Origin: Candidatus Daviesbacteria bacterium
GTDB taxonomy: Bacteria; Patescibacteriota; Microgenomatia; Daviesbacterales; UBA10151
Length of the DNA stretch: 64,000 nt
Assembly: GCA_016187035.1 (NCBI GenBank)
Contig: JACPKL010000012.1
Coordinates: forward strand, 8,925-72,924
Direction of reading: 5' to 3'
Positions 3,800 through 63,864 of this stretch are shown here, in pieces. Below the pieces are notes generated by a model. It was not told the origin of the DNA, did not search any database, and saw only the letters and a list, made by a program, of their open reading frames with translations. Position 1 is the first letter of the stretch; each line of letters opens with the position of its first letter. The position numbers were made by a program, and so were the translations under genes.

Positions 3800-4058
3800 G
3801 AATAACAAAAAGTTATTTGTTGGCTCTTTGCCATGGTCTGTAGATGATGCAAAATTAACTCAGATTTTTTCTCAAGCAGGTAATGTTGTTTCAGCACAAG
3901 TTATTAAAGACAGGGAAACAGGTAGGTCAAGAGGCTTTGGATTTGTTGAAATGTCAACAGAAGAAGAAGCCCGGGCATCTGTAAACAATTTAAATGGATC
4001 TGATGTTGATGGCAGAAAAATTATTGTTAATATAGCTCGTCCTAGAGAAGACCGTTAA
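3789..4058 (+). CDS. RRM-type RNA-binding protein
   Basis: RNP motifs KLFVGSLPW (RNP2) and RGFGFVEM (RNP1). The true start may be TTG at 3798, giving MNNKKLFVGSL. Confidence 0.85.
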   Translation: MIFLNNKKLFVGSLPWSVDDAKLTQIFSQAGNVVSAQVIKDRETGRSRGFGFVEMSTEEEARASVNNLNGSDVDGRKIIVNIARPREDR

Positions 4059-4753
4059 TTTTTAATACTATATCTTAAAAACAACTCATCCTTAACCTTT
4101 TTAACTGAAAGCAATGTGAGTTTTTTAATGAGAGTGGAGGGGAATAATATTCCGTCGACTAAAGTTTTAGTGGAATTTTGTCTGCCCCCTATTATTTTGG
4201 GAGCAATTGTTAGAAATAATTCATCAATCAGGTTCTCCTTCAAAAAAGAACCTAAAAGGGTGGGTCCTCCCTCAATTAAGACATGTTTATAACCCTGTTC
4301 TTTAAGCTCTCCCAAAAATTCTTTTCCCAGGTTAGAAGCTATTCTACCTGGGAGGTTGATTACGTTGCAACCTAGGGAGTTTAGGTACTTCAGGGATTGT
4401 GGGTGTCTTGTAATGATATAGTAAGGCAATTTAGCGCTTTTGCCCAAAACTCTTCTGGTTTGCTGAAAAGATCTTTTATTTAGACTTTTTAAAGTTAGTT
4501 CCCCGTCTTGCCTGGCTGTTTCTCCTCCATGAATTAAACAATCGGCATAAGTTCTTAGTTCCATTAAGACATCATGGTCTGTCTTTGAACCAATCGGCCA
4601 ATACCCTTTTCCCTTAACCGCTACTTTACCGTCAACTGTCTGGACAAAATTAGAATAAAAAAAAGGTCTGTTTTTAGGAAGATTAGGGAATTTAAGATTA
4701 GGGTAAAGCATGTTCCAGCTTGGGTAAAATTTTCTTTGAGGCCAGATACTCAA
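4055..4753 (-). CDS. RibD C-terminal domain / dihydrofolate-reductase-like reductase
   Basis: QTVDGKVAV ... LIEGGPTLLGSFL ... LIDELFLTIAPKIIGG is typical of RibD_C reductases. The start is probably internal (MLYPNL..), since the 5' end overlaps the next gene. Confidence 0.65.
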   Translation of the reverse strand: MSIWPQRKFYPSWNMLYPNLKFPNLPKNRPFFYSNFVQTVDGKVAVKGKGYWPIGSKTDHDVLMELRTYADCLIHGGETARQDGELTLKSLNKRSFQQTRRVLGKSAKLPYYIITRHPQSLKYLNSLGCNVINLPGRIASNLGKEFLGELKEQGYKHVLIEGGPTLLGSFLKENLIDELFLTIAPKIIGGRQNSTKTLVDGILFPSTLIKKLTLLSVKKVKDELFLRYSIKN

Positions 4754-10567: not shown

Positions 10568-12883
10568 CTACTCATACCTTAGTGCATTCAAGGCAGATAT
10601 CTTGGTAGCTCTTTTGGCAGGATAAATACCAGTGCCAATTCCAACAAGCAGGGAAAGGAAGATTACTGCCAAAACAAAGGTAAAGGGAATATATGAGACA
10701 TCCACAAACCCTACTCCTTTAAAGATGGCAAAAACAGATAAAATCACGCCCAGCAGTTTCCCCATCAGAAAGCCTAAGATAATACCGATGATCCCTCCAA
10801 AGAATCCCATGATCATAGATTCTGTTAAAAACAATTCCTGGACTTCTGAGGATTTCATTCCCATGGCTTTCATTAGTCCCACCTCCCTGGTTCTCTCAAG
10901 GAGTGATACTGTTAAAGTATTAAACATGCCAAGCGCTGCTACAGCCAGGGCTACCATGCCAAGTAAAGCCAGTATTGTCCTTAGAGTATTAAACAAGGAG
11001 TTGATTTGAGCCACAGTATCAGCAACAGAGCGGGTAGCATAACCCATGGCCTCAATCTGGCGTCTAGTTTTGGCAAGTGAGCCCTGGTCTTTAACTACTA
11101 CCTTAACCTGGGAATAGTTAGTTACTCCTAATGATCTTAAATCAACAAATGGTACATAAAATACAGGAGTTTTTTCATCAGGGGTAACCCCTAAAATAGT
11201 GTAATCTTCTGCCTGGGATTCTACTTTTTGTTGACTGTCATCAGTTAATTCTCCCAGTATTACAAATGAGGCAGAGAACTTCTTGCCTATGGCCTCATTT
11301 TCTTTAATGCCTAAGATTTTAAGCAAGCTGCGGTTGACAATAGCCTGTTTTTTAGCAGCAGAGGATAAAGTAACTGTTTTGGCTTCAGGTGTTTTAATAA
11401 CCCCTGATTCTGAGGCAATCTCCACAAAATCTAAATTAGCAGAACCAGAGGCATCTGTTTGAGTGGAGGTGACACCCAATACTTTAGCAGAGTTTAGGCT
11501 AGATGGTTTGACAGTAGTATCTTTAAATACCAGGTTCATCCTGGCAATATATCCTTTTTTCTGGGTCTGGGAATTATCTGGTTCCCTTAAAACTTTATAC
11601 CTGCCTGCCTCACAATCTCCTTTTTCTTTGTCACAGCTTTCCTGTTTCCAAAGCAGCACATCTGCTTTAATCCAAATACCCAAAGGTTTGCCATCACTAT
11701 CTGCTCCCGCTTTGCCATCATTAGAATCAGATAAATATGTCCCTCCCCAGACTTTTTCTCCCTGGTATTTTCCTTCCACTCTTTTGGTATAGCCTAGGAT
11801 TTTAGCAGCAGCAGAGGGAGATTCTCTGACCCTGATCCATTCATTAGGGTTAATGCTAAACTCCACATCAGCAATTTTGTCACCTATATTGTTCGAAGCC
11901 GAAGGCTGAGAACTATCAGTGCTTACTCCCAATACCTGATCCTTTCTGTCTGGCACAACCATTGACAGTTCATTTGAGTCAAAGATCTTCCCCTCCACAG
12001 GTTTTATCGCAGATTGTTTTAAATAATCAGAAGTTACCCCGTAAACTGCCGTATCAGACACTGAAGATTGGTAGCTGATTCTGCCTACCACAGCAATTAA
12101 TGGTAAAGCCATGCCAACTTCGGGGATATCTTTTAAACTGTTTAAGGTTTTATCATTAATTTTTACCTTAGAGCCTGATTGGGGAGAAACATCAGTCTGC
12201 CTCATTTCATCAAGCCTGGCTACCCTGGTTATTACTAACTGCTGGAGCCCATAACCAATGGAAACCAAAAAGACTATTGCTCCAATACCAATGGCCATGC
12301 CTCCCACAGTTACCATGCTTCTGACCTTTTTAGTCTGCATATTCCTGATAGACAGCTCTATTAAATCCAGCCTGGAGATGGAATTTTGCTGAGTATTATT
12401 TAGAAAACTTACAGCTCTGGTATAAAACTTGGCCCAGGCAGGATGGAATTTTAAATTCAGCCTATCTGTCATTCCCGCGCGACGCTTCGAAGAAGCTAGT
12501 CCCCTTGTGGGGAAAGCGGGAATCCACCTCAACCTGCTTAATTTAAGGACTATCTGGGTATCTATTAGATAGAGACTTAACAGTAAGGCAAAGCTTAAAA
12601 AATGCCAGAAGGTATGTTTAAACAGTAACCAGGTTGCTTTAAGGGAGGCTCTGGTGAGTTTGTGGGTGATTAAGAACTTACCTGAACTGATAATCCAAAG
12701 AGCCAGTTTAACAAGCAGTTTACCAACCCCTTTTGTCATTCCGAGCCCTTCGACTTTGCTCAGGACAGGCTCCGTCGAGGAATCTCCAGATTGCCGCGTC
12801 GCTTCGCTCCTCGCAATGACAGCGGGTCTAGCTTGCCCAGCGACAGGGTTTAGTTTTCTAAAAAACCTTGATCTTTTAATCAT
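10568..12883 (-). CDS. FtsX/MacB-type ABC transporter permease with large extracytoplasmic domain; N-terminal ~137 aa doubtful
   Basis: MacB-type N-terminal helix IRNMQTKKVRSMVTVGGMAIGIGAIVF and C-terminal FtsX domain (RTREVGLMKAMGMK). The first 137 codons contain two translated repeat copies. An alternative start is ATG 12472..12470. Confidence 0.75.
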   Translation of the reverse strand: MIKRSRFFRKLNPVAGQARPAVIARSEATRQSGDSSTEPVLSKVEGLGMTKGVGKLLVKLALWIISSGKFLITHKLTRASLKATWLLFKHTFWHFLSFALLLSLYLIDTQIVLKLSRLRWIPAFPTRGLASSKRRAGMTDRLNLKFHPAWAKFYTRAVSFLNNTQQNSISRLDLIELSIRNMQTKKVRSMVTVGGMAIGIGAIVFLVSIGYGLQQLVITRVARLDEMRQTDVSPQSGSKVKINDKTLNSLKDIPEVGMALPLIAVVGRISYQSSVSDTAVYGVTSDYLKQSAIKPVEGKIFDSNELSMVVPDRKDQVLGVSTDSSQPSASNNIGDKIADVEFSINPNEWIRVRESPSAAAKILGYTKRVEGKYQGEKVWGGTYLSDSNDGKAGADSDGKPLGIWIKADVLLWKQESCDKEKGDCEAGRYKVLREPDNSQTQKKGYIARMNLVFKDTTVKPSSLNSAKVLGVTSTQTDASGSANLDFVEIASESGVIKTPEAKTVTLSSAAKKQAIVNRSLLKILGIKENEAIGKKFSASFVILGELTDDSQQKVESQAEDYTILGVTPDEKTPVFYVPFVDLRSLGVTNYSQVKVVVKDQGSLAKTRRQIEAMGYATRSVADTVAQINSLFNTLRTILALLGMVALAVAALGMFNTLTVSLLERTREVGLMKAMGMKSSEVQELFLTESMIMGFFGGIIGIILGFLMGKLLGVILSVFAIFKGVGFVDVSYIPFTFVLAVIFLSLLVGIGTGIYPAKRATKISALNALRYE
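12467..12526. repeat. MITE-like nested-palindrome repeat (GTCATTCC...GGAATCC family) inside the permease ORF
   Basis: tgtcattcccgcgcgacgcttcgaagaagctagtccccttgtggggaaagcgggaatcca is the reverse complement (about 90 percent identical by eye) of 22296..22350. Confidence 0.8.
12734..12822. repeat. MITE-like repeat (GTCATTCCGAG ... CTCGCAATGACA) inside the permease ORF
   Basis: The termini tgtcattcc / gcaatgacag and the internal gagattgccgcgtcgcttcgctcctcgcaatgac unit are shared with 14596..14634, 14942..14970 and 56782..56875. It is translated as VIARSEATRQSGDSSTEPVLSKVEGLGMT. Confidence 0.8.
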
Positions 12884-22244: not shown

Positions 22245-22255
22245 AAAAAATCCAA

Positions 22256-22372
22256 TGTCATTCCGTGCTTGACACGGAATCCATATAATATGGATCCCCG
22301 CCTCCCCCACAAGGGGACTGGCTTCTTCGAAGCGTCGCGCGGGAATGACACTGGAAAAAACTGAATTCATAC
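22256..22372. repeat. MITE-like nested-palindrome repeat immediately upstream of avd
   Basis: tgtcattccgtgcttgacacggaatcc ... cgcgcgggaatgacactggaaaaaactgaattcatac. The inner part is the reverse complement of 12467..12526. Confidence 0.8.
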
Positions 22373-22429: not shown

Positions 22430-22514
22430 TGGTGCTGGTGAAGGGAGTCGAACCCTTACGGGCATAGCCCACTCGCTCTTAAGGCGAGCGCGTATACCAT
22501 TCCGCCACACCAGC
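22430..22514 (-). tRNA. tRNA-Leu (TAA)
   Basis: The reverse complement is GCTGGTGTGGCGGAATGGTATACGCGCTCGCCTTAAGAGCGAGTGGGCTATGCCCGTAAGGGTTCGACTCCCTTCACCAGCACCA. It has a long variable arm, the anticodon loop CTTAAGA and an encoded CCA. Confidence 0.9.
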
Positions 22515-25133: not shown

Positions 25134-25192
25134 CAATAGAAAATCAGGGAAGGGAAAGGCTTTGTTCAACTTCCGATATTCTTCCTTATATA

Positions 25193-25245
25193 GATTCCGT
25201 GTCAAGCACGGAATGACAAGGTATTGGTAAAAACTGAATAGTTAC
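25193..25245. repeat. solo right half of the MITE (hairpin plus right TIR)
   Basis: gattccgtgtcaagcacggaatgacaaggtattggtaaaaactgaatagttac. Its reverse complement matches the left TIR at 24157..24197. Confidence 0.7.
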
Positions 25246-29214: not shown

Positions 29215-29239
29215 TAGCGGCATGAAAACAATCACACAT

Positions 29240-30235
29240 CTATCCTACCTCGGAGGTGGGAGTGAAGCTACACCTAGGGTTTAATGTGTTAATTAATGTT
29301 TTTAACCCTTTTTCCAGTCCTATTTTTGGTTCCCAGCCTAAGACTTCTTTGGCATGGGAGATATCAGGACAACGCTTTAAAGGATCATCTTCTGGCAGCT
29401 CAGCTATAGATTTTATTTCAGATGTGGATCCTGTCAGCTGTTTGATTTTTTCTGCCAGCTCCTGTATGGTAAATTCCTGAGGGTTTCCCAAATTAAACAC
29501 CTTCCCTTTATTCCCCTTTTCCATGGCTAATACAATCCCTTCTATTAAATCTGAGACATAGCAGAAAGATCTGGTTTGGCTGCCATTACCAAAAATTGGA
29601 ATAGGTTTATTGGCCAAAGCTGCATTGATAAACTCAATCACCACCCTGCCATCATCTGCCATTCTTGGCCCATAAGTATTAAAGATTCTGACTGTTCTGC
29701 CATCCAATCCTTTTGACCTGATGAAAGCAGCAGTAATTGTTTCCCCGAATCTTTTAGACTCATCATAAACTGACCTTGGCCCTAAAGTTGATACATTTCC
29801 CAGATAACTTTCTTTTTGAGGGTGTTCCTTTGGATTGCCATATATTTCAGAGGTGGAGGCAAACAAAAACTTAGCTCCTATTTTTTTGGCCAGTTCACAT
29901 AAATTCCAGGTTCCTAAGGAGTTAACCTGCATGGTTTCAAAAGCCAAAGCATGATAGGACTTGGGGCTGTTAATATTAGGAGAAGCAGGAGAAGCCAAAT
30001 GGTAAATTTGATCTGCCCCGATTAAATCGGGGTTCGCTTCAAGATCCAAAGGTAAAGGTTTTACCACATCTGCTTCAATAAATCTAAAATTAGGGTTTGA
30101 TCTTAAATGCTCAATGTTTTTTAAGTCACCTGTTAAAAGGTTATCAATAGCTATAACTTCATCCCCACGCTGGAGTAACTTATCTACTAAATGTGATCCA
30201 AGAAATCCGGCACCTCCCGTGACTATTATTTTCAT
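29240..30235 (-). CDS. UDP-glucuronate decarboxylase / UDP-xylose synthase-like NAD-dependent epimerase-dehydratase
   Basis: Rossmann motif TGGAGFLGSHL and the catalytic YDESK context. The C-terminal 13 aa (NPRCSFTPTSEVG) and the stop codon are encoded by a REP copy. Confidence 0.8.
   Translation of the reverse strand: MKIIVTGGAGFLGSHLVDKLLQRGDEVIAIDNLLTGDLKNIEHLRSNPNFRFIEADVVKPLPLDLEANPDLIGADQIYHLASPASPNINSPKSYHALAFETMQVNSLGTWNLCELAKKIGAKFLFASTSEIYGNPKEHPQKESYLGNVSTLGPRSVYDESKRFGETITAAFIRSKGLDGRTVRIFNTYGPRMADDGRVVIEFINAALANKPIPIFGNGSQTRSFCYVSDLIEGIVLAMEKGNKGKVFNLGNPQEFTIQELAEKIKQLTGSTSEIKSIAELPEDDPLKRCPDISHAKEVLGWEPKIGLEKGLKTLINTLNPRCSFTPTSEVG
29243..29286 (+). repeat. REP-like palindromic element (RAYT-associated family, subtype A)
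   Basis: tcctacctcggaggtgggagtgaagctacacctagggtttaatg is identical over about 38 nt to the reverse complement of 61102..61140. Confidence 0.85.
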
Positions 30236-34328: not shown

Positions 34329-36707
34329 TTGATGTTTCAAAAGAAATTGGTTGCTTGGTTTGATGAGCTGACTATTAAAGATGTCTCCTTGGTTGGCGGG
34401 AAAAATGCTTCTTTAGGGGAGATGTATCAGAAATTAACCCAAAAAGGGGTTGATATTCCTTATGGGTTTGCAATCACTTCTTTTGCTTACAGGCTGTTTT
34501 TAAAAGAAAATGGCCTGGATGAAAAAATCAGGGAGATTTTAAAGGATCTGGATACAAAAAGCATATCCAATTTAAAGATAAGGGGTCAAAAAATCCGCTC
34601 TCTAATTTTAAACTCCCATATTCCAAAGGAAGTAGAACAGGAAATTATAGATTATTATAAAAAACTATCCCAAAAATATCATACCCTAAATGTAGGTGTA
34701 GCTGTGCGCTCATCTGCCACAGCTGAGGATCTGCCTGATGCTTCTTTTGCCGGCCAGCAGGCCACTTTTTTAAACATCAGCGGTAATAATCATCTTTTAA
34801 AATCTGTTAAAGAATGTTTCGCTTCGCTTTTTACCAACAGGGCTATTTCTTACCGTACAGATAAAGGGTTTGGCCATCTTAAAGTTTATCTTTCAGTGGG
34901 AATCCAGAAAATGGTCTCATCTGATAAAGCCTCATCAGGTGTGATGTTTACTTTAGACCCTGATACTGGATTTAGGAATGTGGTAGTAATCAACAGCGCC
35001 TGGGGACTGGGTGAGCTGGTTGTCCAGGGCCAGGTGATTCCTGATGAGATAATGGTATTTAAACCAACCAAAGCCATCATATCTAAAAATTTAGGTTCCA
35101 AGGATGAATCTTTAATTTATGATGGTGAGAACAAAACCAGATTAATAAAAAATTCACCGCAGTTAAAGCAGCAATTTACTTTAAGTGACAAAGAAATTTT
35201 ACAGTTGTCTGAATGGGCAATCCAAATTGAGAATCATTATAAAAAGCCTATGGATATTGAATGGGCAAAAGACGGGGAAACTAACAGGATGTATATTGTC
35301 CAGGCCAGGCCGGAAACAATCCATGCTGCCAAAAACATCTCTTTTATGGAAGATTATCAAATGCACCGTCATGGAAAATTACTGGCTCAGGGTATAGCTG
35401 TTGGCACTAAAATTGCCCAGGGCAAAGCCCATGTTATCCAAAGCGCTGCCCAAATAGGTCAGTTTAAGCAGGGTGAGGTGCTGGTTACTAAAATTACCGA
35501 TCCGGACTGGGAGCCGATTATGAAGAAAGCCCAGGCAATTGTGACAGATGAAGGGGGCAGGACATCCCATGCTGCAATAGTCTCCAGGGAATTGGGAATC
35601 CCCTGTATTGTGGGCACGCAAAACAGCACTAAGTGCCTTGAAAATTCCCAAACAGTTACAGCTGACTGTTCAAACGGCGCTAATGGTTTAGTTTATGAGG
35701 GAGAAGGAGAATGGGAGGTTAAAAAATATTCTGTTTCCAATATAAAGAGGCCAAAAACTAAAATTATGATAAATATTGGCTCTCCTGATGAGGCTTTTAA
35801 GAATTCATTTTTACCAAATGACGGTGTGGGGCTGGCCAGGGAAGAATTTATTATTGCTTCAAAGATTAAAATTCATCCACAGGCCCTATTAAATTATGAT
35901 AGTTTAGATAAAAATACCAAAGCAGAAATTGATAAATTAACAACAGGTTACAAAGATAAAACTAAATATTACATAGATAAGTTAGCCTCAGGAATTGCCC
36001 GGATAGGAGCTGCTTTTTATCCAAAACCTGTGATTGTCCGTTTTTCTGATTTTAAAACAAATGAATACTCCTCTTTAATAGGAGGAAAACTGTTTGAGCC
36101 CAAAGAAGAAAATCCGATGATTGGTTTCAGAGGCGCTTCACGCTACTATGATCCCCGCTTTGAACAATCTTTTGGTTTGGAATGTCAGGCTATAAAAAAG
36201 GTAAGGGAGGGGTGGGGATTAACAAATGTGATTGTGATGATTCCTTTTTGCCGGACTTTGCAAGAGGGCAAAAAAGTTTTGGAAACCATGGCCAAATACG
36301 GCTTAAAAAAAGGGCAAAAAGGTTTGAAAGTATATATGATGGCAGAAATCCCCTCAGATATAATTTTGGCAGATGAATTTTTGAAGATATTTGATGGGTT
36401 TAGCATTGGCTCAAATGACCTGACCCAGCTCACTTTAGGAATGGACCGGGACAATGCAGATCTTTCAAAAATTGCCAATGAACAAGATCCTGCTGTGAAA
36501 CAGTTAATAGAAAAGGTGATTAAGGTCAGCAAGGTACATAAAAAGTATGTTGGGATCTGCGGCCAGGCCCCCTCGGATTACCCGGAATTTGCCAAATTTT
36601 TAGTCAGGCTGGGAATTGAGAGCATCTCCTTAAACCCGGATACAGTCATCAAAACCACCCTGGCCATCCTCTCTGCAGAAAAATTACGTTCAAACCCCAG
36701 GGGTTGA
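34329..36707 (+). CDS. ppsA: phosphoenolpyruvate synthase (pyruvate, water dikinase)
   Basis: ATP-grasp N-terminus (VGGKNASLGEM), phosphohistidine domain GGRTSHAAIVSRELGIPCIVG and C-terminal PEP-utilising TIM domain. The last 5 codons and the stop lie in a repeat. Confidence 0.9.
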   Translation: MMFQKKLVAWFDELTIKDVSLVGGKNASLGEMYQKLTQKGVDIPYGFAITSFAYRLFLKENGLDEKIREILKDLDTKSISNLKIRGQKIRSLILNSHIPKEVEQEIIDYYKKLSQKYHTLNVGVAVRSSATAEDLPDASFAGQQATFLNISGNNHLLKSVKECFASLFTNRAISYRTDKGFGHLKVYLSVGIQKMVSSDKASSGVMFTLDPDTGFRNVVVINSAWGLGELVVQGQVIPDEIMVFKPTKAIISKNLGSKDESLIYDGENKTRLIKNSPQLKQQFTLSDKEILQLSEWAIQIENHYKKPMDIEWAKDGETNRMYIVQARPETIHAAKNISFMEDYQMHRHGKLLAQGIAVGTKIAQGKAHVIQSAAQIGQFKQGEVLVTKITDPDWEPIMKKAQAIVTDEGGRTSHAAIVSRELGIPCIVGTQNSTKCLENSQTVTADCSNGANGLVYEGEGEWEVKKYSVSNIKRPKTKIMINIGSPDEAFKNSFLPNDGVGLAREEFIIASKIKIHPQALLNYDSLDKNTKAEIDKLTTGYKDKTKYYIDKLASGIARIGAAFYPKPVIVRFSDFKTNEYSSLIGGKLFEPKEENPMIGFRGASRYYDPRFEQSFGLECQAIKKVREGWGLTNVIVMIPFCRTLQEGKKVLETMAKYGLKKGQKGLKVYMMAEIPSDIILADEFLKIFDGFSIGSNDLTQLTLGMDRDNADLSKIANEQDPAVKQLIEKVIKVSKVHKKYVGICGQAPSDYPEFAKFLVRLGIESISLNPDTVIKTTLAILSAEKLRSNPRG

Positions 36708-36733
36708 TTAGCTTTGAACCCCAGGAATTTAGG
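36688..36733 (+). repeat. interspersed repeat family 3 (GTTCAAACCCCAGGGGTTGA.TAGCTTTGAACCCCAGGAAT)
   Basis: Near-identical copies lie at 51762..51807, 54667..54695 (partial), 55924..55959 and, inverted, 63825..63864. Confidence 0.85.
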
Positions 36734-36934: not shown

Positions 36935-38224
36935 TCACATCCTAAATCTTCTGTCTGTTAAAAAAGGATTAGGTTTTCTCTTGATTTTAACAGAAGTTAA
37001 TAAAATCCCTCTTTGCAGGGTAAAATCCCCATATTTGTTATTTATTCTGTCCAAAGTTTTAATAATGGTTTCTTGTTTCTGTACCTCAGGTAACAGGCTG
37101 ATTGTTTGACCAGTAACCTCTTTTAAGTTGGAGATAGATACACCTATCATCCTTATTTTGTTTCCGTTCCAGATCTGCTGAAAAATTCTCAAACCAGCCT
37201 TAAAAATTTCCAGCCCATCTTGGGTAGGAAAAATAGTTGCCTGCATCCCATCTCCATTAAATCCTACCTCGGAGGTAGGAATACGATGAGACGTAGGGTT
37301 TAATGCTTCTCTGTACCAACAGCTGACTGTTTTCCCTACCAGTTTTTTGTCCCTTAACCTTTTACCAACCATCTCACAAATTTTCAGAAGGATTTGTTTT
37401 ATTTCCAAAAGATCATCAGTATCATGAGAAATAGTATGTCTGTGGCCTATTGATTTAACTTCTTCCTTTGTAAAAAAAGGGGTCACAATAGAATCAGCTA
37501 TCCCCCTTGATATGTTATATAACATTAAACCCTGATGAGGCTTGAAAGAAGCAATTAAAGCTTTAAGCGGTACTGACCTTAGCTGAGCAAAGTTAAACAC
37601 TCCCATATTGTTTAATCTTTTTTTAAGTCTGTCTCCAATCCCGCAAATCTCATCTAAACCCACTCTGTCCAAAATAAACCGGGCAGCATCAGTATCTGCT
37701 ATCATCACTAGTCCATCTGGCTTATATAAGGATCCAGCCAGTTTAGCCATTAGTTTGTTATAGGAAATACCAATGGAACAGGTAATGTATTCCCCTACTT
37801 CAGTTCTGATTCTGGATTTGATCTGCTGAGCAAGCTCTAAAAAGGAAGCTACACCTCGGAGGTGTACTGAAGGTAACTCAAGGAATACTTCATCAATTGA
37901 GAATATCTCCAAATTAGGGGAATAATCTTTTAAAATATTTAAAAATCTCTTGGTGGTTTCCAGATATTTATCGCAGTCTCCTTTAATTAAAATTATCTGA
38001 GGACAAAGCTCCTTAGCTTCCCAAATCTGCATACCTGTTTTAACCCCAAATTCTTTGGCCTCTTGAGAAGCTGCACCAATAACTGTTCTTTTCATCCTGT
38101 CTCCCCCTGTTACCCCAATCGGTTTACCTCTAAGTCTGGGATTAGCTTGTTGCTCAACTGTGGCAAAGTATGAGTTAAAATCAATATGAAAAATTACTCT
38201 TCCTCTACTGTCTCCAAACTCCAT
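36935..38224 (-). CDS. dinB: Y-family DNA polymerase IV with an in-frame 48-nt REP copy in the little-finger region
   Basis: IFHIDFNSYFATVEQ, SIDEVFLE and the C-terminal IRMIGVSISNL are present. The segment EALNPTSHRIPTSEVG is encoded by REP 37262..37309. Confidence 0.85.
   Translation of the reverse strand: MEFGDSRGRVIFHIDFNSYFATVEQQANPRLRGKPIGVTGGDRMKRTVIGAASQEAKEFGVKTGMQIWEAKELCPQIILIKGDCDKYLETTKRFLNILKDYSPNLEIFSIDEVFLELPSVHLRGVASFLELAQQIKSRIRTEVGEYITCSIGISYNKLMAKLAGSLYKPDGLVMIADTDAARFILDRVGLDEICGIGDRLKKRLNNMGVFNFAQLRSVPLKALIASFKPHQGLMLYNISRGIADSIVTPFFTKEEVKSIGHRHTISHDTDDLLEIKQILLKICEMVGKRLRDKKLVGKTVSCWYREALNPTSHRIPTSEVGFNGDGMQATIFPTQDGLEIFKAGLRIFQQIWNGNKIRMIGVSISNLKEVTGQTISLLPEVQKQETIIKTLDRINNKYGDFTLQRGILLTSVKIKRKPNPFLTDRRFRM
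37262..37309 (+). repeat. REP-like element (subtype B) inside dinB
   Basis: tcctacctcggaggtaggaatacgatgagacgtagggtttaatgcttc is identical at 47 of 48 positions to the intergenic copy 38486..38533. Confidence 0.9.
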
Positions 38225-38445: not shown

Positions 38446-38485
38446 ATTACACCCAAAAATTACCCGAAGTCAATACCCAAAACCC

Positions 38486-38533
38486 TCCTACCTCGGAGGT
38501 AGGATTACGATGAGACGTAGGGTTTAATGCTTC
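38486..38533 (+). repeat. REP-like element (subtype B), intergenic
   Basis: See 37262..37309. It is in the same orientation and lies at the boundary of the G+C-richer operon. Confidence 0.9.
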
Positions 38534-38543
38534 AGTCAAGAGG

Positions 38544-38882
38544 CTATTCTGAGGTAGAATCTTTTCTGCGCAACCTTTGCCATATTACCACACCACCAAC
38601 TATACCTGCTAAAGAAGCCACTCCAATTCCAACATACAACATAACACCTCTATGAGTGGCTAAGGCAACAGCATCCTGACCAAAACGGATAATGCGGTTT
38701 GTAATGTCAGGCCGAGGCTGCAGAAACTTATCTGCCATAGCTCTTAGCTGTTCCGGATCAACAGCCTGCGGGGTTTCAGTAATATTGATCTCTTGGGGGA
38801 TAGCATCAGGCGGCCCTAGGTGGCCACCCTCACCAGCCAATTGTTCTCCATAATCAGTTTCACGTTCAAGACCTAAACTCAT
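38544..38882 (-). CDS. C-terminally anchored small membrane protein (last gene of the KS operon)
   Basis: 112 aa with an acidic N-terminal part and the TM helix VMLYVGIGVASLAGIVGGVVIW near the C-terminus. Confidence 0.5.
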   Translation of the reverse strand: MSLGLERETDYGEQLAGEGGHLGPPDAIPQEINITETPQAVDPEQLRAMADKFLQPRPDITNRIIRFGQDAVALATHRGVMLYVGIGVASLAGIVGGVVIWQRLRRKDSTSE

Positions 38883-51196: not shown

Positions 51197-51781
51197 ATGA
51201 TTGTGCTTACTGGTAAAACAGCATCAGGAAAAGATACCATTGCTTATAAATTACTGTTAAAATACCCGTTACTTAAAAGAGTTATCACTACAACTTCGCG
51301 TATTCCAAGAAAAGATGAAACAAATGGCAAGGATTATTATTTTCTAACCAGGGAAGAATTTAATGAAAAAATTAAAAATGGAGAGTTTGCAGAATATGTT
51401 GGTTACGGAGGGAATCTATACGGGACTTTTAAAAAAGAACTGGAACAAGCCTTAATCTCGGACACTCTTTGGAGAATAGATCCATCAAGGGCAGGAGAAG
51501 TTCGGGAGTTTATTAAAAGAACATTTCCTTCTGGGGAGGCACAAGATTTAATTCAGAGAGTAGTTGTTATTTATATTACTACAGCTGACAAAGTTATCCT
51601 TGAAAGACTCAAAAATAGAGGTTTATCTGAATCTGAAATTATAAAGAGAATGAATGATGATAATAAAATCTGGCAAAAGTATAGCCAAAAATATGACTTT
51701 GTAGTAGAAAATGCGCCGGGTAGACTGGATCAAACCCTCAACAAAATTATCAGTATTCTAGGTTCAAACCCCAGGGGTTGA
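51197..51781 (+). CDS. gmk: guanylate kinase
   Basis: P-loop GKTASGKDT and TTTSRIPRKDETNGKDYYFLTREEF. The C-terminal SNPRG and the stop codon are encoded by a family-3 repeat. Confidence 0.8.
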   Translation: MIVLTGKTASGKDTIAYKLLLKYPLLKRVITTTSRIPRKDETNGKDYYFLTREEFNEKIKNGEFAEYVGYGGNLYGTFKKELEQALISDTLWRIDPSRAGEVREFIKRTFPSGEAQDLIQRVVVIYITTADKVILERLKNRGLSESEIIKRMNDDNKIWQKYSQKYDFVVENAPGRLDQTLNKIISILGSNPRG

Positions 51782-51807
51782 ATAGCTTTGAACCCCTGGA
51801 ATTAGCC
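51762..51807 (+). repeat. interspersed repeat family 3, full copy
   Basis: gttcaaaccccaggggttgaatagctttgaacccctggaattagcc. Confidence 0.85.
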
Positions 51808-53482: not shown

Positions 53483-54673
53483 ATGGATATTAGTGAGACT
53501 ACCCGGTCAGCTTTTACAGCCATTTTGGCTAATAAAATGAGGTCTTTTTTAACTATTTTAGGAATTGTGATTGGTGTAACTTCGGTTATTTTATTAATTT
53601 CTCTGGTTGTGGGCCTGCAAACTTTTATCACCAACCAGATTCAGGGTTTAGGTTCAAATTTGCTATTTGTGATTCCCGGCAGGTTAGGCGGTGCCCGCTC
53701 CCCTGGCGGAGTGCAGGCAAACAGGCTGGAATTTTCAGATGCCGTTAGCTTAAGAAGCAAGCTGGGGTCTGAAGCCCAGGTTTCAGCAGTCATCCAAAGG
53801 ACAGCTACTTTAAAATTTGGCAATAAAACAGATAAAGGTGCTGCTGTTTTTGGTGTTGAAGCTAATTATCCTAAAATTATCTCCATTAAACTTGCGGAAG
53901 GGCGTTTTTTTAAAGAGTCAGAAGTACAATCTGTCAGAAAAGTAGCAGTGATTGGCCAGACTGTCAGAAAAAACCTTTTTGGCAGTAGCCAGGTGATCGG
54001 ACAAGCAGTGGATGTTGCAGGTTTGAAGTACACTGTTATAGGTATTTCAGCGCCAAGGGGGTCAACTTTTGGGATAGACCAGGATAATTCTATTATTCTT
54101 CCCTTTCCTGCTGCCCAAAGGCAGTTTGGCATCAACAGGCTTAATACTATTTATATTTCTGCAAAAGGGGCTGATAATGTAAAACCTGTCCAGGAAAAAG
54201 CTGTAAAAGTTTTAAAAAAAAGATTAACTGAAGATGATTTTACTATCCAGTCCCAGGAACAGACCCTTTCCACTATCTCACAAATAACATCTGTTTTAAC
54301 TTTAGCTTTAGGAGGGGTTGCTGCTATTTCTTTAATAGTTGGGGGGATTGGGATTATGAATATCATGCTGGTGACTGTAGCAGAAAGAACAAGGGAAATA
54401 GGTTTAAGAAAAGCTTTGGGGGCAAGGCCAAAAGATATTAGAAGTCAGTTTTTAATTGAGGCTGTGGTTTTATCAGGTTTAGGAGGAATAATTGGGATTA
54501 TTTTAGGCATTATTATTTCATTTATTATAGGCAGGTTTTTTACTACCACTGTCCCTCTCTGGTCTGTTGCTTTATCTTTTGGATTTTCTATGCTGGTAGG
54601 TATAATTTTTGGAGTTACCCCAGCCATCAGGGCAGCCAAACTCGACCCCATCCAGGCTCTAAGATATGAATAG
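53483..54673 (+). CDS. ABC transporter permease (MacB/FtsX type)
   Basis: MacB N-terminal helix, a periplasmic domain and the C-terminal FtsX domain (RTREIGLRKALGAR). Confidence 0.9.
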   Translation: MDISETTRSAFTAILANKMRSFLTILGIVIGVTSVILLISLVVGLQTFITNQIQGLGSNLLFVIPGRLGGARSPGGVQANRLEFSDAVSLRSKLGSEAQVSAVIQRTATLKFGNKTDKGAAVFGVEANYPKIISIKLAEGRFFKESEVQSVRKVAVIGQTVRKNLFGSSQVIGQAVDVAGLKYTVIGISAPRGSTFGIDQDNSIILPFPAAQRQFGINRLNTIYISAKGADNVKPVQEKAVKVLKKRLTEDDFTIQSQEQTLSTISQITSVLTLALGGVAAISLIVGGIGIMNIMLVTVAERTREIGLRKALGARPKDIRSQFLIEAVVLSGLGGIIGIILGIIISFIIGRFFTTTVPLWSVALSFGFSMLVGIIFGVTPAIRAAKLDPIQALRYE

Positions 54674-54695
54674 CTTTGAACCCCAGGAATTAGCC
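54667..54695 (+). repeat. interspersed repeat family 3, 3' part only
   Basis: tgaatagctttgaaccccaggaattagcc contains the TAG stop of the permease gene. Confidence 0.8.
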
Positions 54696-54722
54696 TTATT
54701 TTATATTAATAATAAGTAAACA

Positions 54723-54761
54723 TCCTACCTCCGAGGTAGAAGTGAAGCTACACCTAGGGTC
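54723..54761 (+). repeat. REP-like element (subtype A)
   Basis: tcctacctccgaggtagaagtgaagctacacctagggtc. Confidence 0.85.
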
Positions 54762-54785
54762 TTTCTACAAATTTTGCATATTCTG

Positions 54786-54823: not shown

Positions 54824-55705
54824 ATGCTGGAGCAGGAACAGGCTCTCTGGGCAGCTGTCCACCGCAGAGAAGTTACATTAGCAAGTAAGAATAATCTGCA
54901 AGAGGGCTATTCTGATACTACACAGGCAATAATTTATGAGGGCGATATAGCAATTGAAGCATTGGCTCTGCAGTATGATTCATCAGTTAAATATGTGATG
55001 GTAAGAACAGCTTTAAACTTTGGTCCACTAACCACTCCGGATGACCAGTATCAAAACGGCAGATTAGGTCTTGTTGAAGCAATCAGGAGCTTTAATCCAA
55101 ATAATGGCGCACCGTTCCTATCGTATGCAATACCCCATATCCGCGGAGCCATGCTAGACGCTGAGCGGGATGCCTCATTTTTACCTAGAAGCGCTACAGA
55201 TCGTGGGTTGCTTGTTGAAAGAGTAACAAACAGATTCTTTCAAAATCATGGTACAAAACTAACTGAATCAGAATTATTGAAACTATGCCAGACTAAAGAT
55301 CAATTGTTAAAAACCACCAAACAGCTGCGGCAAGCACAACAAGCTCTCAGCATGACTATTGTTTCCCTAGATGAACCTATAGACGATGAGGGAGATGGTG
55401 TTAGAGGAGATTTTGTGACAGACGATGCTAATGTAACTCCAGAGCAGGCTGTAATAAGAGCAGAAGAGATGATAAGCTTGAGAGGAGCTATCACCACACT
55501 TCAAAGGCGCGACCAAATTTTGATTAATCTCCATTACGAGAAAGGGATGACTTTTGCTGAGATCGCAAGAATTCTTGAGACTTCTGAATCAGCAGTGTTT
55601 CAACTCCATGATAGAGTAAAAAAGAGACTACGCAGACAGCTAGGAATAACTGACTCCATATCAAGAAAGTGTTTTTCTCCTTCGCTTAAATGGAGTAAGC
55701 CTTAA
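54824..55705 (+). CDS. sigma-70 family sigma factor (group 3, SigF/FliA-like)
   Basis: Region 2 (GRLGLVEAIRSFNPNNGAPFLSYAIPHIRGAMLD), region 3, and region 4 HTH (LINLHYEKGMTFAEIARILETSESAVFQLHDRVKKRLR). Confidence 0.8.
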   Translation: MLEQEQALWAAVHRREVTLASKNNLQEGYSDTTQAIIYEGDIAIEALALQYDSSVKYVMVRTALNFGPLTTPDDQYQNGRLGLVEAIRSFNPNNGAPFLSYAIPHIRGAMLDAERDASFLPRSATDRGLLVERVTNRFFQNHGTKLTESELLKLCQTKDQLLKTTKQLRQAQQALSMTIVSLDEPIDDEGDGVRGDFVTDDANVTPEQAVIRAEEMISLRGAITTLQRRDQILINLHYEKGMTFAEIARILETSESAVFQLHDRVKKRLRRQLGITDSISRKCFSPSLKWSKP

Positions 55706-55913: not shown

Positions 55914-55923
55914 TCTCCTTAAT

Positions 55924-55959
55924 GAACCCCAGGGGTTGAATACGTTCAAACCCCAGGAA
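55924..55959 (+). repeat. interspersed repeat family 3 variant
   Basis: gaaccccaggggttgaatacgttcaaaccccaggaa is the reverse complement of 63825..63864. Confidence 0.85.
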
Positions 55960-56110
55960 ATAAATGATCTAGTTTGAAATCTAGATGCTGTATATTGCTG
56001 TATATTAAAGAAGTAAAAGATATGAGACTAGAGCAAGATATGCATGTTCAAAAACATAGAGATATAGATGACAAGTTTAAGGGATTAGAATCTGCAATGA
56101 AGGTTGTAAA

Positions 56111-58473: not shown

Positions 58474-59907
58474 GTGAAGAATTTAACCTTGGTTTTTTTT
58501 GGAATAACCTCTAATCTGGCTCAAAAATATTTTATCCCAGCTCTCTATGATATGTGCGAAAAAGGGGTATTGCCAGATAACATGACTATCTTGGGAAATG
58601 CCAGAACTCCTATGGACAAGGCAGAGTTTGCCTCATATATTCATAAAGTTTTACATTTGCCCAATGTTCATCACCAGCACTCTATCCAGGAAGAATTTTT
58701 TAAAAAACTTATCAGGAAATTTCATTATCTGGCAGGTCATTTGGACGATCCTGTCTTTTATACTCTTTTAAAGCATACTTTAGACCATTCTGGTCTGCAG
58801 GATAGAATCTTTTACCTGGCCACTTATCCTGATTTATACCACCATATTTTTGAAAATCTAAAAAAAGTTAGCCTAAACAAACAGGATCAAGGTTTTGTCA
58901 GGCTGATGATAGAAAAGCCAATTGGCCATGATCTTAAATCTGCCAAAGCTTTGAATACTTTACTTTTGAAATACTTTACTGAGGATCAAATTTATAGATT
59001 AGATCACTATTTGGGCAAAGAGACCCTACAAAATATTTTAACCTTCAGATTCTCAAATGGCATATTTGAGCCTTTAATAAATAAAGAGTACATTGATCAT
59101 ATTCAGATTACAGCTTCAGAGGACTTTGGCATAGGACAAAGAGGCAGCTACTATGATCAACTGGGAGCTTTGAAAGACGTTGGTCAGAATCACCAGCTGC
59201 AGATGCTGGCTTTTGCCACCATGAATGCTCCGGCAGAGTTTAGCAATGAGGCTGTCACCAGACAAAGAATTAAAATCCTGCAAAGTCTTACTCCTGTACC
59301 CAAAAAAATAGTCTTTGGGCAGTATGCAGGATATAGAAAAGAGGAAAATGTTGATCCTGTATCTAACACTGATACTTTTTATGCTTTTAAAACTTTTATA
59401 AAAAATGACAGGTTTAAGGATGTACCCGTTTATATCAGAGCAGGCAAAAAATTAGCCCAAACTGTCACTGAAATTTCTATTATTTTCAAAAATCCGATCA
59501 ATAGGTTGCTAAAAAATTTAGACTTGGGTGAGGAACCAAATGTTTTAATTTACAGAGTTGGACCAAATGAAGGCATTGTTTTAAAAATATTAACTAAAGT
59601 CCCAGGACATGAAATTAAACTTGAACCAGAATATATGCAGTTTTGCTACAAGGCAGATTTGCATAGCCATATTATTCCTGATCCTCATGAAAGGCTTTTG
59701 ATGGATACTATTCATGGTGACCAAACTTTCTTTAATGATGCAGAAGAGGTAGAAGCCCAATGGGCTTTTATAGATCCCCTTGCTAATGCTCGGGGCAAGC
59801 CGCATATTTACAAAGTGGGTACCTGGGGACCTAAAGAAGCTGGAAGGTTAATAGAAGAAGATGGCAGATCCTGGCTTGAGCCTTCCATGGACTTTTGCAG
59901 AATTTAG
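58474..59907 (+). CDS. zwf: glucose-6-phosphate 1-dehydrogenase
   Basis: N-terminal FFGITSNLAQKYFIPALY, the active-site motif RLDHYLGKE and IEKPIGHDL. Confidence 0.9.
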   Translation: MKNLTLVFFGITSNLAQKYFIPALYDMCEKGVLPDNMTILGNARTPMDKAEFASYIHKVLHLPNVHHQHSIQEEFFKKLIRKFHYLAGHLDDPVFYTLLKHTLDHSGLQDRIFYLATYPDLYHHIFENLKKVSLNKQDQGFVRLMIEKPIGHDLKSAKALNTLLLKYFTEDQIYRLDHYLGKETLQNILTFRFSNGIFEPLINKEYIDHIQITASEDFGIGQRGSYYDQLGALKDVGQNHQLQMLAFATMNAPAEFSNEAVTRQRIKILQSLTPVPKKIVFGQYAGYRKEENVDPVSNTDTFYAFKTFIKNDRFKDVPVYIRAGKKLAQTVTEISIIFKNPINRLLKNLDLGEEPNVLIYRVGPNEGIVLKILTKVPGHEIKLEPEYMQFCYKADLHSHIIPDPHERLLMDTIHGDQTFFNDAEEVEAQWAFIDPLANARGKPHIYKVGTWGPKEAGRLIEEDGRSWLEPSMDFCRI

Positions 59908-60386
59908 AAGCTCCCTAGAGGCCAAAAGCCCAAAGTAAAATTTTTCCCTCTAATTTTAAACCTTCTTCTATAACCTGCCTCTATTGTTAATTCTTCAGCC
60001 TGAGCAGCAGTGTATCCTCTAGCCTTACCTGATACTACTACCATCTCATGAGCACCAAAAAGTATGGCGCCAGTACGCATATCTTCAAACGGAACCAAAC
60101 CTCTTCCTATTCTCTTAATATCTAATGGAGCTACATTAAATGCAAGAAGTCTTGCTTGAGGATAAACTGCAACTAATGCTTCTGGTTCGCCCAATTCTCC
60201 TCCATGTAGTTTCAGACAAAATCTGGTGGGATCAGTTAAGAAATCCTCAAATACAACTCTCCTGCCAGAAAATGAGTGTTCATCAGGTACTTCATGACGT
60301 ACATACACACCATTTTCCTTTTCAATACTTACACCAGGAATCATAATGTCTGGATTATATACTATAAGGGAAGGGGATGCAAACAT
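59904..60386 (-). CDS. hypothetical protein (orphan, G+C-richer)
   Basis: 160-aa ORF whose ATG lies 3 nt from REP-L of the RAYT unit. Confidence 0.45.
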   Translation of the reverse strand: MFASPSLIVYNPDIMIPGVSIEKENGVYVRHEVPDEHSFSGRRVVFEDFLTDPTRFCLKLHGGELGEPEALVAVYPQARLLAFNVAPLDIKRIGRGLVPFEDMRTGAILFGAHEMVVVSGKARGYTAAQAEELTIEAGYRRRFKIRGKNFTLGFWPLGSF

Positions 60387-60389
60387 TAA

Positions 60390-61140
60390 TCCTACCTCCG
60401 AGGTGGAAATATATTGACACGTAGGGTTTTATCTGCTTTAGTTAACTTATGCCTTATCGGATAACCCCCCTGGTAAATGGAGAGATTTATCATGTCTTTA
60501 ACCGGGGAGTTGCCAAGCTTCCTATTTTCAGGGATCGGCGAGATTATAACCGGTTCCTGGAAACAATCTATTACTATCAGTTCCAGGGTCCGAAACCTCA
60601 GTTCTCCCAATTAAAAAGATTTAAGGATTTTAATTTTGAGAAAAATAAAAGAATAGTTGAGTTAAATTGCTATTGTCTAATGCCTAACCATTATCACTTT
60701 CTGCTAAAACAACTGGAGGATAATGGTATATCAGAGTTTATGAACAAAACATCTAACAGCTACACTAAATATTTTAATACCAGGCATACTAGAGTTGGTC
60801 CGCTTCTACAAGGACAGTTTAAGGCTATCAGGATTGAATCTGAGGAACAGCTCATTCATGTTTCCAGATATATCCACTTAAACCCAATAGTTTCATTTCT
60901 AGTTAAAGATCTAAAAGAGCATGATTGGTCATCTTATAAAAAATATGTTGGTTTAGAAGAGAATAAACTTTGCAATATAGATTTAGTTTTATCAATTTTC
61001 AAAACACCACAAAAGTATGAACAATTTGTTTTAGATCAGGTTAGTTATGGCCAAAGTCTGGAGATGATTAAGCATGTTTTGATAGATGAAAAATAGTCAT
61101 AGACCCTAGGTGTAGCTTCACTCCCACCTCCGAGGTAGGA
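60390..61140 (+). mobile_element. RAYT unit: IS200/IS605-like Y1 transposase gene flanked by inverted REP-like palindromes
   Basis: Left flank 60390..60430 is tcctacctccgaggtggaaatatattgacacgtagggtttt. Right flank 61102..61140 is gaccctaggtgtagcttcactcccacctccgaggtagga, in inverted orientation. Confidence 0.8.
60449..61096 (+). CDS. REP-associated tyrosine transposase (RAYT; IS200-like HUH Y1 transposase)
   Basis: GEIYHVFNRGVAKLPIF, the HUH motif in CYCLMPNHYHFLLKQ, and the catalytic Tyr context SRYIHLNPI. Confidence 0.85.
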   Translation: MPYRITPLVNGEIYHVFNRGVAKLPIFRDRRDYNRFLETIYYYQFQGPKPQFSQLKRFKDFNFEKNKRIVELNCYCLMPNHYHFLLKQLEDNGISEFMNKTSNSYTKYFNTRHTRVGPLLQGQFKAIRIESEEQLIHVSRYIHLNPIVSFLVKDLKEHDWSSYKKYVGLEENKLCNIDLVLSIFKTPQKYEQFVLDQVSYGQSLEMIKHVLIDEK

Positions 61141-61143
61141 TAG

Positions 61144-61383
61144 TTATGGTCCAGGTACTTTATCACCTAAATACATAAAAGGCACATGAAGTGTGAATAT
61201 AGTTCTGTGTCCAAGCTTTAAATCTATGATTCTATCTCTTGGTTGACTTGCTATTGAACTATATCCAGTTCTAACATTTGCCCAATGACGTTGCCAAACC
61301 GCAGTATCATCCTCTATGTCAATAGTTGGTTGACTATTTTCAATTAAAGTACATAGACCATTTATTCTAGCTTCAATAGACAT
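61144..61383 (-). CDS. hypothetical small protein
   Basis: 79-aa ORF whose stop codon lies 3 nt from REP-R. Confidence 0.4.
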   Translation of the reverse strand: MSIEARINGLCTLIENSQPTIDIEDDTAVWQRHWANVRTGYSSIASQPRDRIIDLKLGHRTIFTLHVPFMYLGDKVPGP

Positions 61384-63814: not shown

Positions 63815-63824
63815 TCTGCAATAA

Positions 63825-63864
63825 TTCCTGGGGTTTGAACGTATTCAACCCCTGGGGTTGGAAC
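63825..63864 (-). repeat. interspersed repeat family 3, inverted copy, 10 nt after tRNA-Arg
   Basis: ttcctggggtttgaacgtattcaacccctggggttggaac. Confidence 0.85.

Follow-up and report, generated by a model that had tools for sequence, protein, structure and literature searches.

A RAYT-like Y1 HUH nuclease gene bracketed by a dispersed hairpin repeat in Candidatus Daviesbacteria

To our knowledge, systems that pair a REP-associated tyrosine transposase (RAYT) with its repetitive extragenic palindromes (REPs) have been studied almost only in Proteobacteria. TnpA of the IS200/IS605 insertion sequences (IS) recognizes hairpins on single-stranded DNA. TnpA_REP, for its part, has been shown in vitro to cut single-stranded REPs and to carry out strand transfer (PMC8266576, PMC3333891), and within RAYT/REP pairs each enzyme has its own repeat family (PMC6006769). 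With the canonical REPs of Groups 2 and 3, the cut falls at a CT (or CA) beside the hairpin. Here we describe a RAYT-like gene that lies between two inverted copies of a dispersed hairpin repeat in Candidatus Daviesbacteria, within a contig stretch of 64,000 nt and 38% G+C (the window from here on), and compare it with related loci and contigs, which are numbered L001 to L151. A first-pass annotation, made from the letters of the window, had taken the genome for one of the candidate phyla radiation (CPR), and the lineage is indeed of the Patescibacteria group, Microgenomates group.

In the classification of Quentin et al. 2018, class 2 of the TnpA_Y1 proteins is set apart by a Y---NP tyrosine motif, against the Y---Q of IS200 and subclass 1.1 (PMC6006769). 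Subclass 2.1, with the motifs NH[YF]H, FQ, Y[IV]HLNP and an SS tail and a median length of 238 aa (PMC6006769, Table 1), equals RAYT Group 1 of Bertels et al. 2017 (PMC5581495) and, according to Quentin et al. 2018, probably also the TIRYTs (terminal inverted repeat-associated tyrosine transposases) of Di Nocera et al. 2013 (PMC3733652). TIRYT genes bear terminal inverted repeats, some of which are self-complementary and some of which belong to moderately abundant families (PMC3733652). This is the largest and least understood branch of the RAYT-like enzymes. No REP-like sequences near subclass 2.1 genes were found by Quentin et al. 2018, who also describe subgroup 2.1.2 as heterogeneous in having a C-terminal domain and non-IS tnpA_Y1 genes as enriched in large genomes (PMC6006769).

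The locus described here is likely a REPtron-like system, that is, a single-copy, vertically inherited RAYT-like Y1 HUH nuclease acting on single-stranded DNA, together with a cognate short repeat. Systems of this kind are already known, as REPtrons and TIRtrons. What is new is the host group, the pairing of an apparent subclass 2.1 identity with hairpin repeats on either side of the gene, and the repeat itself, a hairpin-plus-tail unit that also comes in 63-nt double-tailed forms and is conserved across species. A literature search found no paper tying RAYT or REP to CPR, Patescibacteria or Microgenomates.

A Y1 HUH enzyme on the RAYT side of the superfamily

The first-pass annotation had proposed a 215-aa open reading frame (ORF) with Y1/HUH hallmarks, and both the ORF and its motifs were read as described (Table 1). 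The HUH histidines, H81 and H83, lie in PNHYHFLL, the catalytic tyrosine, Y141, is found in RYIHLNP, and the tail contains a WSSY motif. A protein 100% identical to it carries the database name “transposase.” The Pfam family Y1_Tnp (PF01797) scored 30.5 bits, which passes its gathering score of 23, and was the only Pfam match at E <= 1; no helix-turn-helix (HTH) or DnaA_C-like C-terminal domain appeared in that search. The sole NCBIfam match was REP_Tyr_transpos (NF047646), at 52 bits. Homologues are numerous, amounting to 22,216 clusters (50% identity) at E <= 1e-3 and 471 at E <= 1e-30. We aligned 73 of them, 36 to 76% identical, and found that H15, H81 and H83 are invariant and that Y141 (at least 90% conserved), N145, P146, S161 and S162 are nearly so. 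The profile built from this alignment matched E. coli TnpA_REP (4ER8) at E = 3.9e-8 and ISDra2 TnpA at E = 8.7e-4. REP_Tyr_transpos was matched by 73/73 of the family members tested (best E, 5.6e-20), against 1/73 for transpos_IS200, at E = 0.0099. The AlphaFold2 model of the window protein (pLDDT 95.7, pTM 0.89) was compared with the PDB by Foldseek, where 4ER8 came first (E = 1.4e-7) and the IS608 and ISDra2 transposases next (E of about 1e-4), with a probability of 1.00.

Since the Pfam, NCBIfam, family-profile and fold matches all point the same way, we place the window protein among the Y1 HUH enzymes and, within that superfamily, on the RAYT side; it has the class-2 Y---NP motif. It does not group with ordinary IS200/IS605 TnpA, as seen in the tyrosine motif, in the preference of profile and fold for 4ER8, in the uneven NCBIfam counts and in the neighboring ORFs (G6PD, 6PGD and two short ones without a Pfam match), among which there is no tnpB. 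The HUH/Y1 fold is shared with the TnpA of IS608 and ISDra2, but IS200/IS605 genes are multicopy, encode proteins of about 150 aa with Y---Q, often adjoin a tnpB and have their ends on the same strand, none of which is true of the window gene.

By motifs only, the enzyme apparently belongs to TnpA_Y1 subclass 2.1 (TIRYT, Bertels Group 1) and not to the canonical REP-associated groups. The window protein has NHYH, LQ, YIHLNP and WSSY, and the family consensus has NHFH, FQ, YIHLNP and WSSY, so that the motif set of the subclass is matched with LQ for FQ in the window protein itself; its length is also near the subclass median. Plasmid-borne relatives, only 24 to 37% identical, were too distant to inform the placement. 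As in some TIRtrons, the gene is flanked by inverted, partly self-complementary repeats of a moderately abundant dispersed family. Unlike in TIRtrons, no GGGGWSAS motif is found in its flanks and, unlike TIRYTs, the protein has no Pfam-detected HTH or Bac_DnaA_C-like C-terminal domain. It also departs from subclass 2.1 as published, for which no REPs are described, in that a hairpin unit flanks every homologue examined here, and from the large-genome hosts of non-IS tnpA_Y1 genes in that its host is a CPR bacterium, with a genome that by our estimate is probably near 1 Mb.

The E. coli REPtron, whose TnpA_REP belongs to RAYT Group 2 (subclass 2.2), provides both the best sequence-profile and the best fold match in the PDB, and resembles the present locus in having the gene bracketed by inverted cognate repeats that are also dispersed, in the single copy of the gene (here, in the window) and in the Y---NP motif. 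However, the two proteins are only ca. 15% identical in the structural alignment, the window protein misses the NCBIfam cut-off, and W94, E100, H101 and R104 of E. coli are not conserved in it. The “classic” RAYT/REP arrangement of the first-pass annotation thus stands insofar as the gene is bracketed by its own dispersed repeats, but this is not a classic proteobacterial RAYT, judging by the subclass 2.1 motifs, the NCBIfam score and the lack of a GT[AG]G foot in the repeat (see below).

A hairpin-plus-tail unit at both ends of the gene

The repeat is a unit of 41 nt composed of a hairpin of 7 to 9 bp, TCCTACCTC-S-GAGGTRGGA, a variable spacer of about 12 nt that defines the subtypes and a conserved tail, ACNCSTAGGGTTT. 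Its 16-nt core, CCTACCTCSGAGGTRG, is present at six sites in the window (Table 1), where dinucleotide shuffles gave an expectation of 0.05 and 0/100 shuffles reached 12 strand-matches. The four sites away from the gene include all the further copies that had been noticed near 29243, 37262, 38486 and 54723, and the family extends to other Daviesbacteria contigs. The six window copies align gap-free over 39 to 48 nt, and a set of 45 distinct 41-nt copies, drawn from related contigs as well as the window, could be aligned with no indel at all. An nhmmer profile scan of the window found no further strong copy beyond the six. A candidate at 4342-4377, inside ORF 4055..4753, reached only E = 0.82 and was left out of the count.

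Table 1. Features of the RAYT-like locus, copies of the repeat in the window and hairpins of the other enzyme lineages
Feature	Position	Strand	16-nt core at	Description
R1, dispersed, subtype A	29242..29282	+	29244	overlaps 3' end of NAD-dependent epimerase/dehydratase-family gene 29240..30235 (-)
R2, dispersed, subtype B	37261..37301	+	37263	in frame inside DNA polymerase IV (dinB) gene 36935..38224 (-)
R3, dispersed, subtype B	38485..38525	+	38487	intergenic; ~10 nt downstream of stop of ORF 38544..38882 (-)
R4, dispersed, subtype A	54722..54762	+	54724	intergenic, between FtsX-like 53483..54673 and sigma-70-family 54824..55705
R5, upstream flanking unit	60389..60429	+	60391	hairpin TCCTACCTC-C-GAGGTGGAA, spacer ATATATTGAC, tail ACGTAGGGTTT; 19 nt before ATG
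Putative promoter	60414..60442	+		TTGACA (60414-60419), 17-nt spacer, TTTAGT (60437-60442), 6 nt to ATG; read from the sequence
RAYT-like Y1 HUH nuclease gene	60449..61096	+		215 aa; matches to Y1_Tnp profile, 4ER8 profile and fold
R6, downstream flanking unit, subtype A	61101..61141	-	61123	begins 4 nt past stop codon; inverted relative to R5
Hairpin of L124 and L149				TCCACCC-TTG-GGGTGGA; proteins 61% (L124) and 58% (L149) identical to window protein; positions relative to gene as in window
Hairpin of L151				TGCAACACC-G-GGTGTTGCA; protein 48% identical to window protein; positions relative to gene as in window

The first-pass annotation had the gene bracketed by inverted palindromes with a stem and a 3-nt loop. 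Both points hold, as R5 and R6 lie in opposite orientations, with their tails toward the gene and their hairpins outward, and each window copy folds, as single-stranded DNA, into a stem of 6 to 8 bp with a 3-nt loop. The two subtypes were also recovered, together with the assignment of the downstream flank to subtype A, but the upstream flank is not of subtype B, as had been thought; R5, whose spacer reads ..TATTGACAC.., makes up a third variant, sharing 73% identity with subtype B and 77% with A. Nor is the family purely extragenic. R2 is inserted in frame in the dinB-like gene, where it encodes LNPTSHRIPTSEVG in the C-terminal IMS_C domain of DNA polymerase IV, and R1 forms the 3' end of the epimerase gene, encoding its last 14 residues (..LNPRCSFTPTSEVG*). 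R2 and R3 are 98% identical over 48 nt. R1 matches the complement of R6 at 94% over 49 nt, with no difference in the first 39 nt of the unit; the near-identity within both pairs, as far as sequence comparison goes, argues for recent copying or homogenization. The central loop base marks a polarity, all upstream copies having C there and most downstream ones G.

Some observations concern the surroundings of the hairpin. A second mini-hairpin in the spacer of subtypes A and B was considered and rejected, with the paired positions falling in different registers in the two subtypes. Outside the 41-nt unit, the outer flanks of R2 (CATTAAA / TTTAATG) form a 7-bp outer stem, and those of R1 read ACACAT / ATGTGT (29230-29295 and 37255-37310 together with the units); this extra complementarity may reflect a preference for palindromic targets or remnants of double-tailed forms.

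Units flanking the gene were seen in the window and in 11 related loci. A unit lies upstream of the homologue in L002 (77% identical to the window protein), L122 (74%), L123 (66%), L127 (81%), L130 (73%), L133 (73%) and L150 (62%), with a full inverted unit also downstream in L002, L122, L123, L127 and L130 and not in L133 and L150; L131 (81%) has the downstream unit only. TATTGACAC is invariant in the upstream units of the window and of seven other loci. Three of the 11 loci (L124, L149 and L151) have lineage-specific hairpins at the same positions (Table 1), and the TCCACCC-type unit is also found in L027, away from any such gene. The loci compared provide at least three enzyme-hairpin pairs, of which two occupy fixed positions in Daviesbacteria chromosomes. 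Three enzyme lineages, each with its own hairpin in the same two positions, are, on these alignments, the pattern expected of enzyme-substrate pairs. In L124, the flanks (9938-9979 and 10653-10694) are identical 42-nt units in direct orientation, inverted orientation being found in the other loci where both could be oriented; a possible reason is that the promoter-bearing unit was recently copied to the 3' side.

A common palindrome that happened to adjoin the gene would be a wholly implausible explanation. The 16-nt core does occur in many unrelated high-GC genomes among the matches listed, with either a single copy or a palindrome pair in each stretch, and in the genome scan with this core, which recovered at least eight Daviesbacteria loci, most of the other matches listed were chance ones in high-GC genomes. 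But the excess over the shuffled expectation in the window, and the recurrence of the full 41-nt unit, tail included, at both gene ends in several independent loci, are not what chance would produce.

The upstream unit also seems to be connected to the expression of the gene (Table 1). TTGACA followed by a T-rich hexamer, at a spacing of 16 to 18 nt, is conserved in the aligned upstream copies, and in lineage B the second hexamer is TATACT or TATGCT. The TTGACA-N17-TTTAGT site was not flagged in a sigma-70 promoter scan because TTTAGT has no A at position 2. No Shine-Dalgarno sequence is visible before the ATG of the window gene. This arrangement suggests a leaderless or near-leaderless mRNA, whose putative start would lie within, or directly behind, the site that the enzyme itself would bind. 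The upstream unit would then carry the promoter of the gene, and the enzyme could regulate itself.

Compared with the REP of E. coli, which has a 5' GTAG foot and a long bulged stem, the present unit has no foot, a short (near-)perfect stem and a conserved 3' tail. The size class of its hairpin is that of the Group 3 REP of Stenotrophomonas maltophilia, an 8-bp perfect palindrome with a 3-nt loop (PMC8266576). However, that REP has a GTAG needed for cleavage and its enzyme has DH[LF]H / WQ / YI[VI]ANP (PMC8266576), and the window system has neither.

Inheritance of the gene and turnover of the repeats

In two relatives, the gene has the zwf/gnd neighborhood that it has in the window. The gene order G6PD - (HAD) - RAYT - 6PGD - ROK is common to L001 to L004 and the window, and L122 keeps the pentose-phosphate neighborhood in rearranged form. 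The second lineage (L124 and L149) has a conserved locus of its own, H+-PPase - Lon - CobA - RAYT - RNR - NrdR. With these conserved loci, a single copy of the gene in the 64-kb window by tblastn and no adjoining tnpB, the evidence argues for resident, vertically inherited genes and not for an active insertion sequence. The two ORFs that adjoin the flanking units in the window, 59904..60386 (-, 160 aa) and 61144..61383 (-, 79 aa), have no Pfam match and are absent from the syntenic L002 locus, which has a HAD hydrolase gene on the upstream side.

An autonomous IS200-like element would be the obvious alternative. On this view, the gene would move together with its hairpin ends as one element of about 750 bp, from which the dispersed 41-nt copies would derive, as solo ends or as sequences similar to miniature inverted-repeat transposable elements (MITEs). 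It would account for the Y1 transposase fold and the flanking hairpins, for the homologues in L123 and L150, which are found in unrelated contexts, and for the identical, direct flanks of L124, which are as IS200/IS605 ends would be. Still, we consider it improbable. Y---NP is found in place of the Y---Q of subclass 1.1 (PMC6006769, Table 1), and the protein is closer to TnpA_REP than to TnpA_IS200. The gene was found once in 64 kb, with no adjoining tnpB, and it occupies the same locus in genomes whose proteins are 74 to 77% identical, the second lineage being locus-fixed as well. Moreover, the flanks are inverted in most loci, which places the hairpin-plus-tail units on opposite strands, and single-strand transposition of IS608 needs both ends on one strand.

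By contrast with the fixed position of the gene, there are signs of turnover among the repeats. Among 20 Daviesbacteria orthologues of dinB, the site that holds R2 in the window was empty in 6/20 and carried a 20-aa insert in 4/20, so that empty sites in relatives, whose comparison had been proposed as a check, do exist. At the DNA level, the window has a 42-nt insert, L147 and L148 carry double-tailed palindromes of 63 nt whose arm subtypes differ, and the site is vacant in L146. These 63-nt forms, found in related genomes, are two units sharing one hairpin; they are also present at L126, L134, L139 and L144 and upstream of the gene in L002, L127 and L133/L022. By their sequence they resemble REPIN-type doublets (REP doublets forming hairpins) collapsed onto one shared hairpin. 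Doublets of this type had been suggested as something to look for, and the relatives provide these forms, but the window has none, all six copies being single-tailed. No copy was found after the orthologous FtsX gene (the R4 site) in L122 or L022, but the downstream sequence there is unrelated, which makes this weak empty-site evidence.

It should be noted that the Daviesbacteria DNA polymerase IV orthologues, 392 to 485 aa long, owe this range of lengths to two hypervariable in-frame insertion sites (after ..FLE.. and after ..CWYREA..), which are filled by different palindromic-repeat families depending on the genome, for example, those encoding VIASP..WQS../..LAMT-type or MHNPGL-type peptides. 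Downstream of the FtsX orthologue in L022 (4900-5050, reverse strand) there is another hairpin, TTCCCACATCCGATGTGGGAA, at the place of R4 in the window; relative to the window hairpin, its two arms carry paired changes.

By analogy with TnpA_REP and with the TnpA of IS608 (PMC8266576, PMC3333891), the enzyme would bind the folded hairpin on single-stranded DNA and cleave beside it through Y141, with an HUH-bound metal. Rejoining of the strands would then copy, move or homogenize the units around the chromosome, and the gene itself would stay fixed between its two inverted units.

Several points weigh against this REPtron-like interpretation. The action of the enzyme on these repeats is inferred from the work on TnpA_REP and IS608. 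With 52 bits, the window protein falls under the 80-bit equivalog cut-off of NF047646. Among the E. coli residues discussed for GTAG recognition, W94, Q95, E100, H101 and R104 (Quentin et al., PMC6006769), the alignment shows only Q95 to be kept, in agreement with a repeat that lacks the 5' GT[AG]G foot. This canonical foot, 0 to 2 nt from the hairpin, is missing from the unit, and the 5' flank is not conserved on the unit strand; on the other strand, a GTAG lies 7 nt from the foot in subtype A but is absent from subtype B, and GT[AG]G is otherwise found only inside the 3' arm of the stem. By itself, the hairpin of most single copies is no stabler than shuffled sequence (z = -0.01 to -0.66), R2 and R3 alone reaching z of about -4 by pairing further with their flanks. 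The 5-bp hairpin core is invariant, without compensatory pairs within the family, although the scans had selected for this core; compensatory variants appear only between families, as CCCACCTC/GAGGTGGG in L150 and CCCACATC/GATGTGGG in L022. The density is low: the 64-kb window has four non-flanking copies (about 1 per 16 kb), no such copy lies in L002, L122 or L123, each a 20-kb locus, and the full unit pattern has only 21 exact matches in the metagenome collection. Lastly, a copy identical at 37/41 nt lies beside the orthologous epimerase gene (72% amino acid identity) in L070, in non-coding surroundings that differ, so that the R1 site seems to be conserved between species, which fits a host function as well as mobility. 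The “active-looking” family of the first-pass annotation is thus borne out only in part, by the filled and empty dinB sites and by the near-identical copies, which argue for turnover, and not by this copy, apparently kept at an orthologous site.

Such a conserved site is what one would expect if the repeats were structural or regulatory elements of the host that recombination had spread, for instance, hairpins for RNA stability or termination, or sites where proteins bind, with the Y1 protein in some other single-strand-DNA role and the repeat being merely its promoter or operator. The conserved TTGACA-N17-T-rich hexamer arrangement in the upstream unit would agree with this, as would the conservation of the unit across genomes whose enzymes are 66 to 81% identical, given that REPs are species-specific and that none were found with subclass 2.1 (Quentin et al., PMC6006769). 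We nevertheless hold it to be unlikely. There is no terminator-like T-run after the hairpins, a regulatory role would leave unexplained the in-frame dinB copies and the different fill states of one site, and the three enzyme lineages each have their own hairpin in the same two positions.

Repeats and RAYT-like enzymes in small genomes

The window contains other small repeats. One family, GTTCAAACCCCAGGGGTTGAATAGCTTTGAACCCCWGGAATT, is found at 36685-36729, 51759-51803, 54667-54691, 55917-55961 and 63822-63864, and its layout resembles that of the 41-nt unit, combining a short palindrome of G+C with a spacer, ATA(C/G)NTT, and another conserved block. There is no cognate Y1 gene for it in the window, and its partner may be an enzyme of another lineage, encoded elsewhere in the genome. 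A third class consists of MITE-like palindromes bounded by TGTCATTCC ... GGAATGACA, with variable interiors, at 12467-12526, 12734, 13899, 22249-22350, 24188, 25186-25225 and 56867, several of which are near the tRNA genes at 22430 and 25061.

As a REPtron-like system, the locus would extend the range of RAYT/REP systems to a small CPR genome and provide a compact, low-copy example. The three enzyme-hairpin pairs seen across the related loci would make enzyme-substrate pairing testable in vitro. There is also a caution for annotation, since genes labeled “transposase” here behave like resident genes, and in-frame inserts of palindromic repeats explain some of the length variation in conserved CPR proteins, such as the 392 to 485 aa of dinB. 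A more specific picture, which we put forward tentatively, as a possibility that falls somewhat short of an even chance, is that of a subclass 2.1 enzyme in CPR whose cognate hairpins co-diversify with it, with a promoter possibly inside its own substrate and with conserved proteins such as DNA polymerase IV tolerating in-frame repeat inserts in recurrent loops. If true, a minimal, low-copy REPIN-like system would have held on in reduced genomes, in which one would not expect selfish repeats to last.

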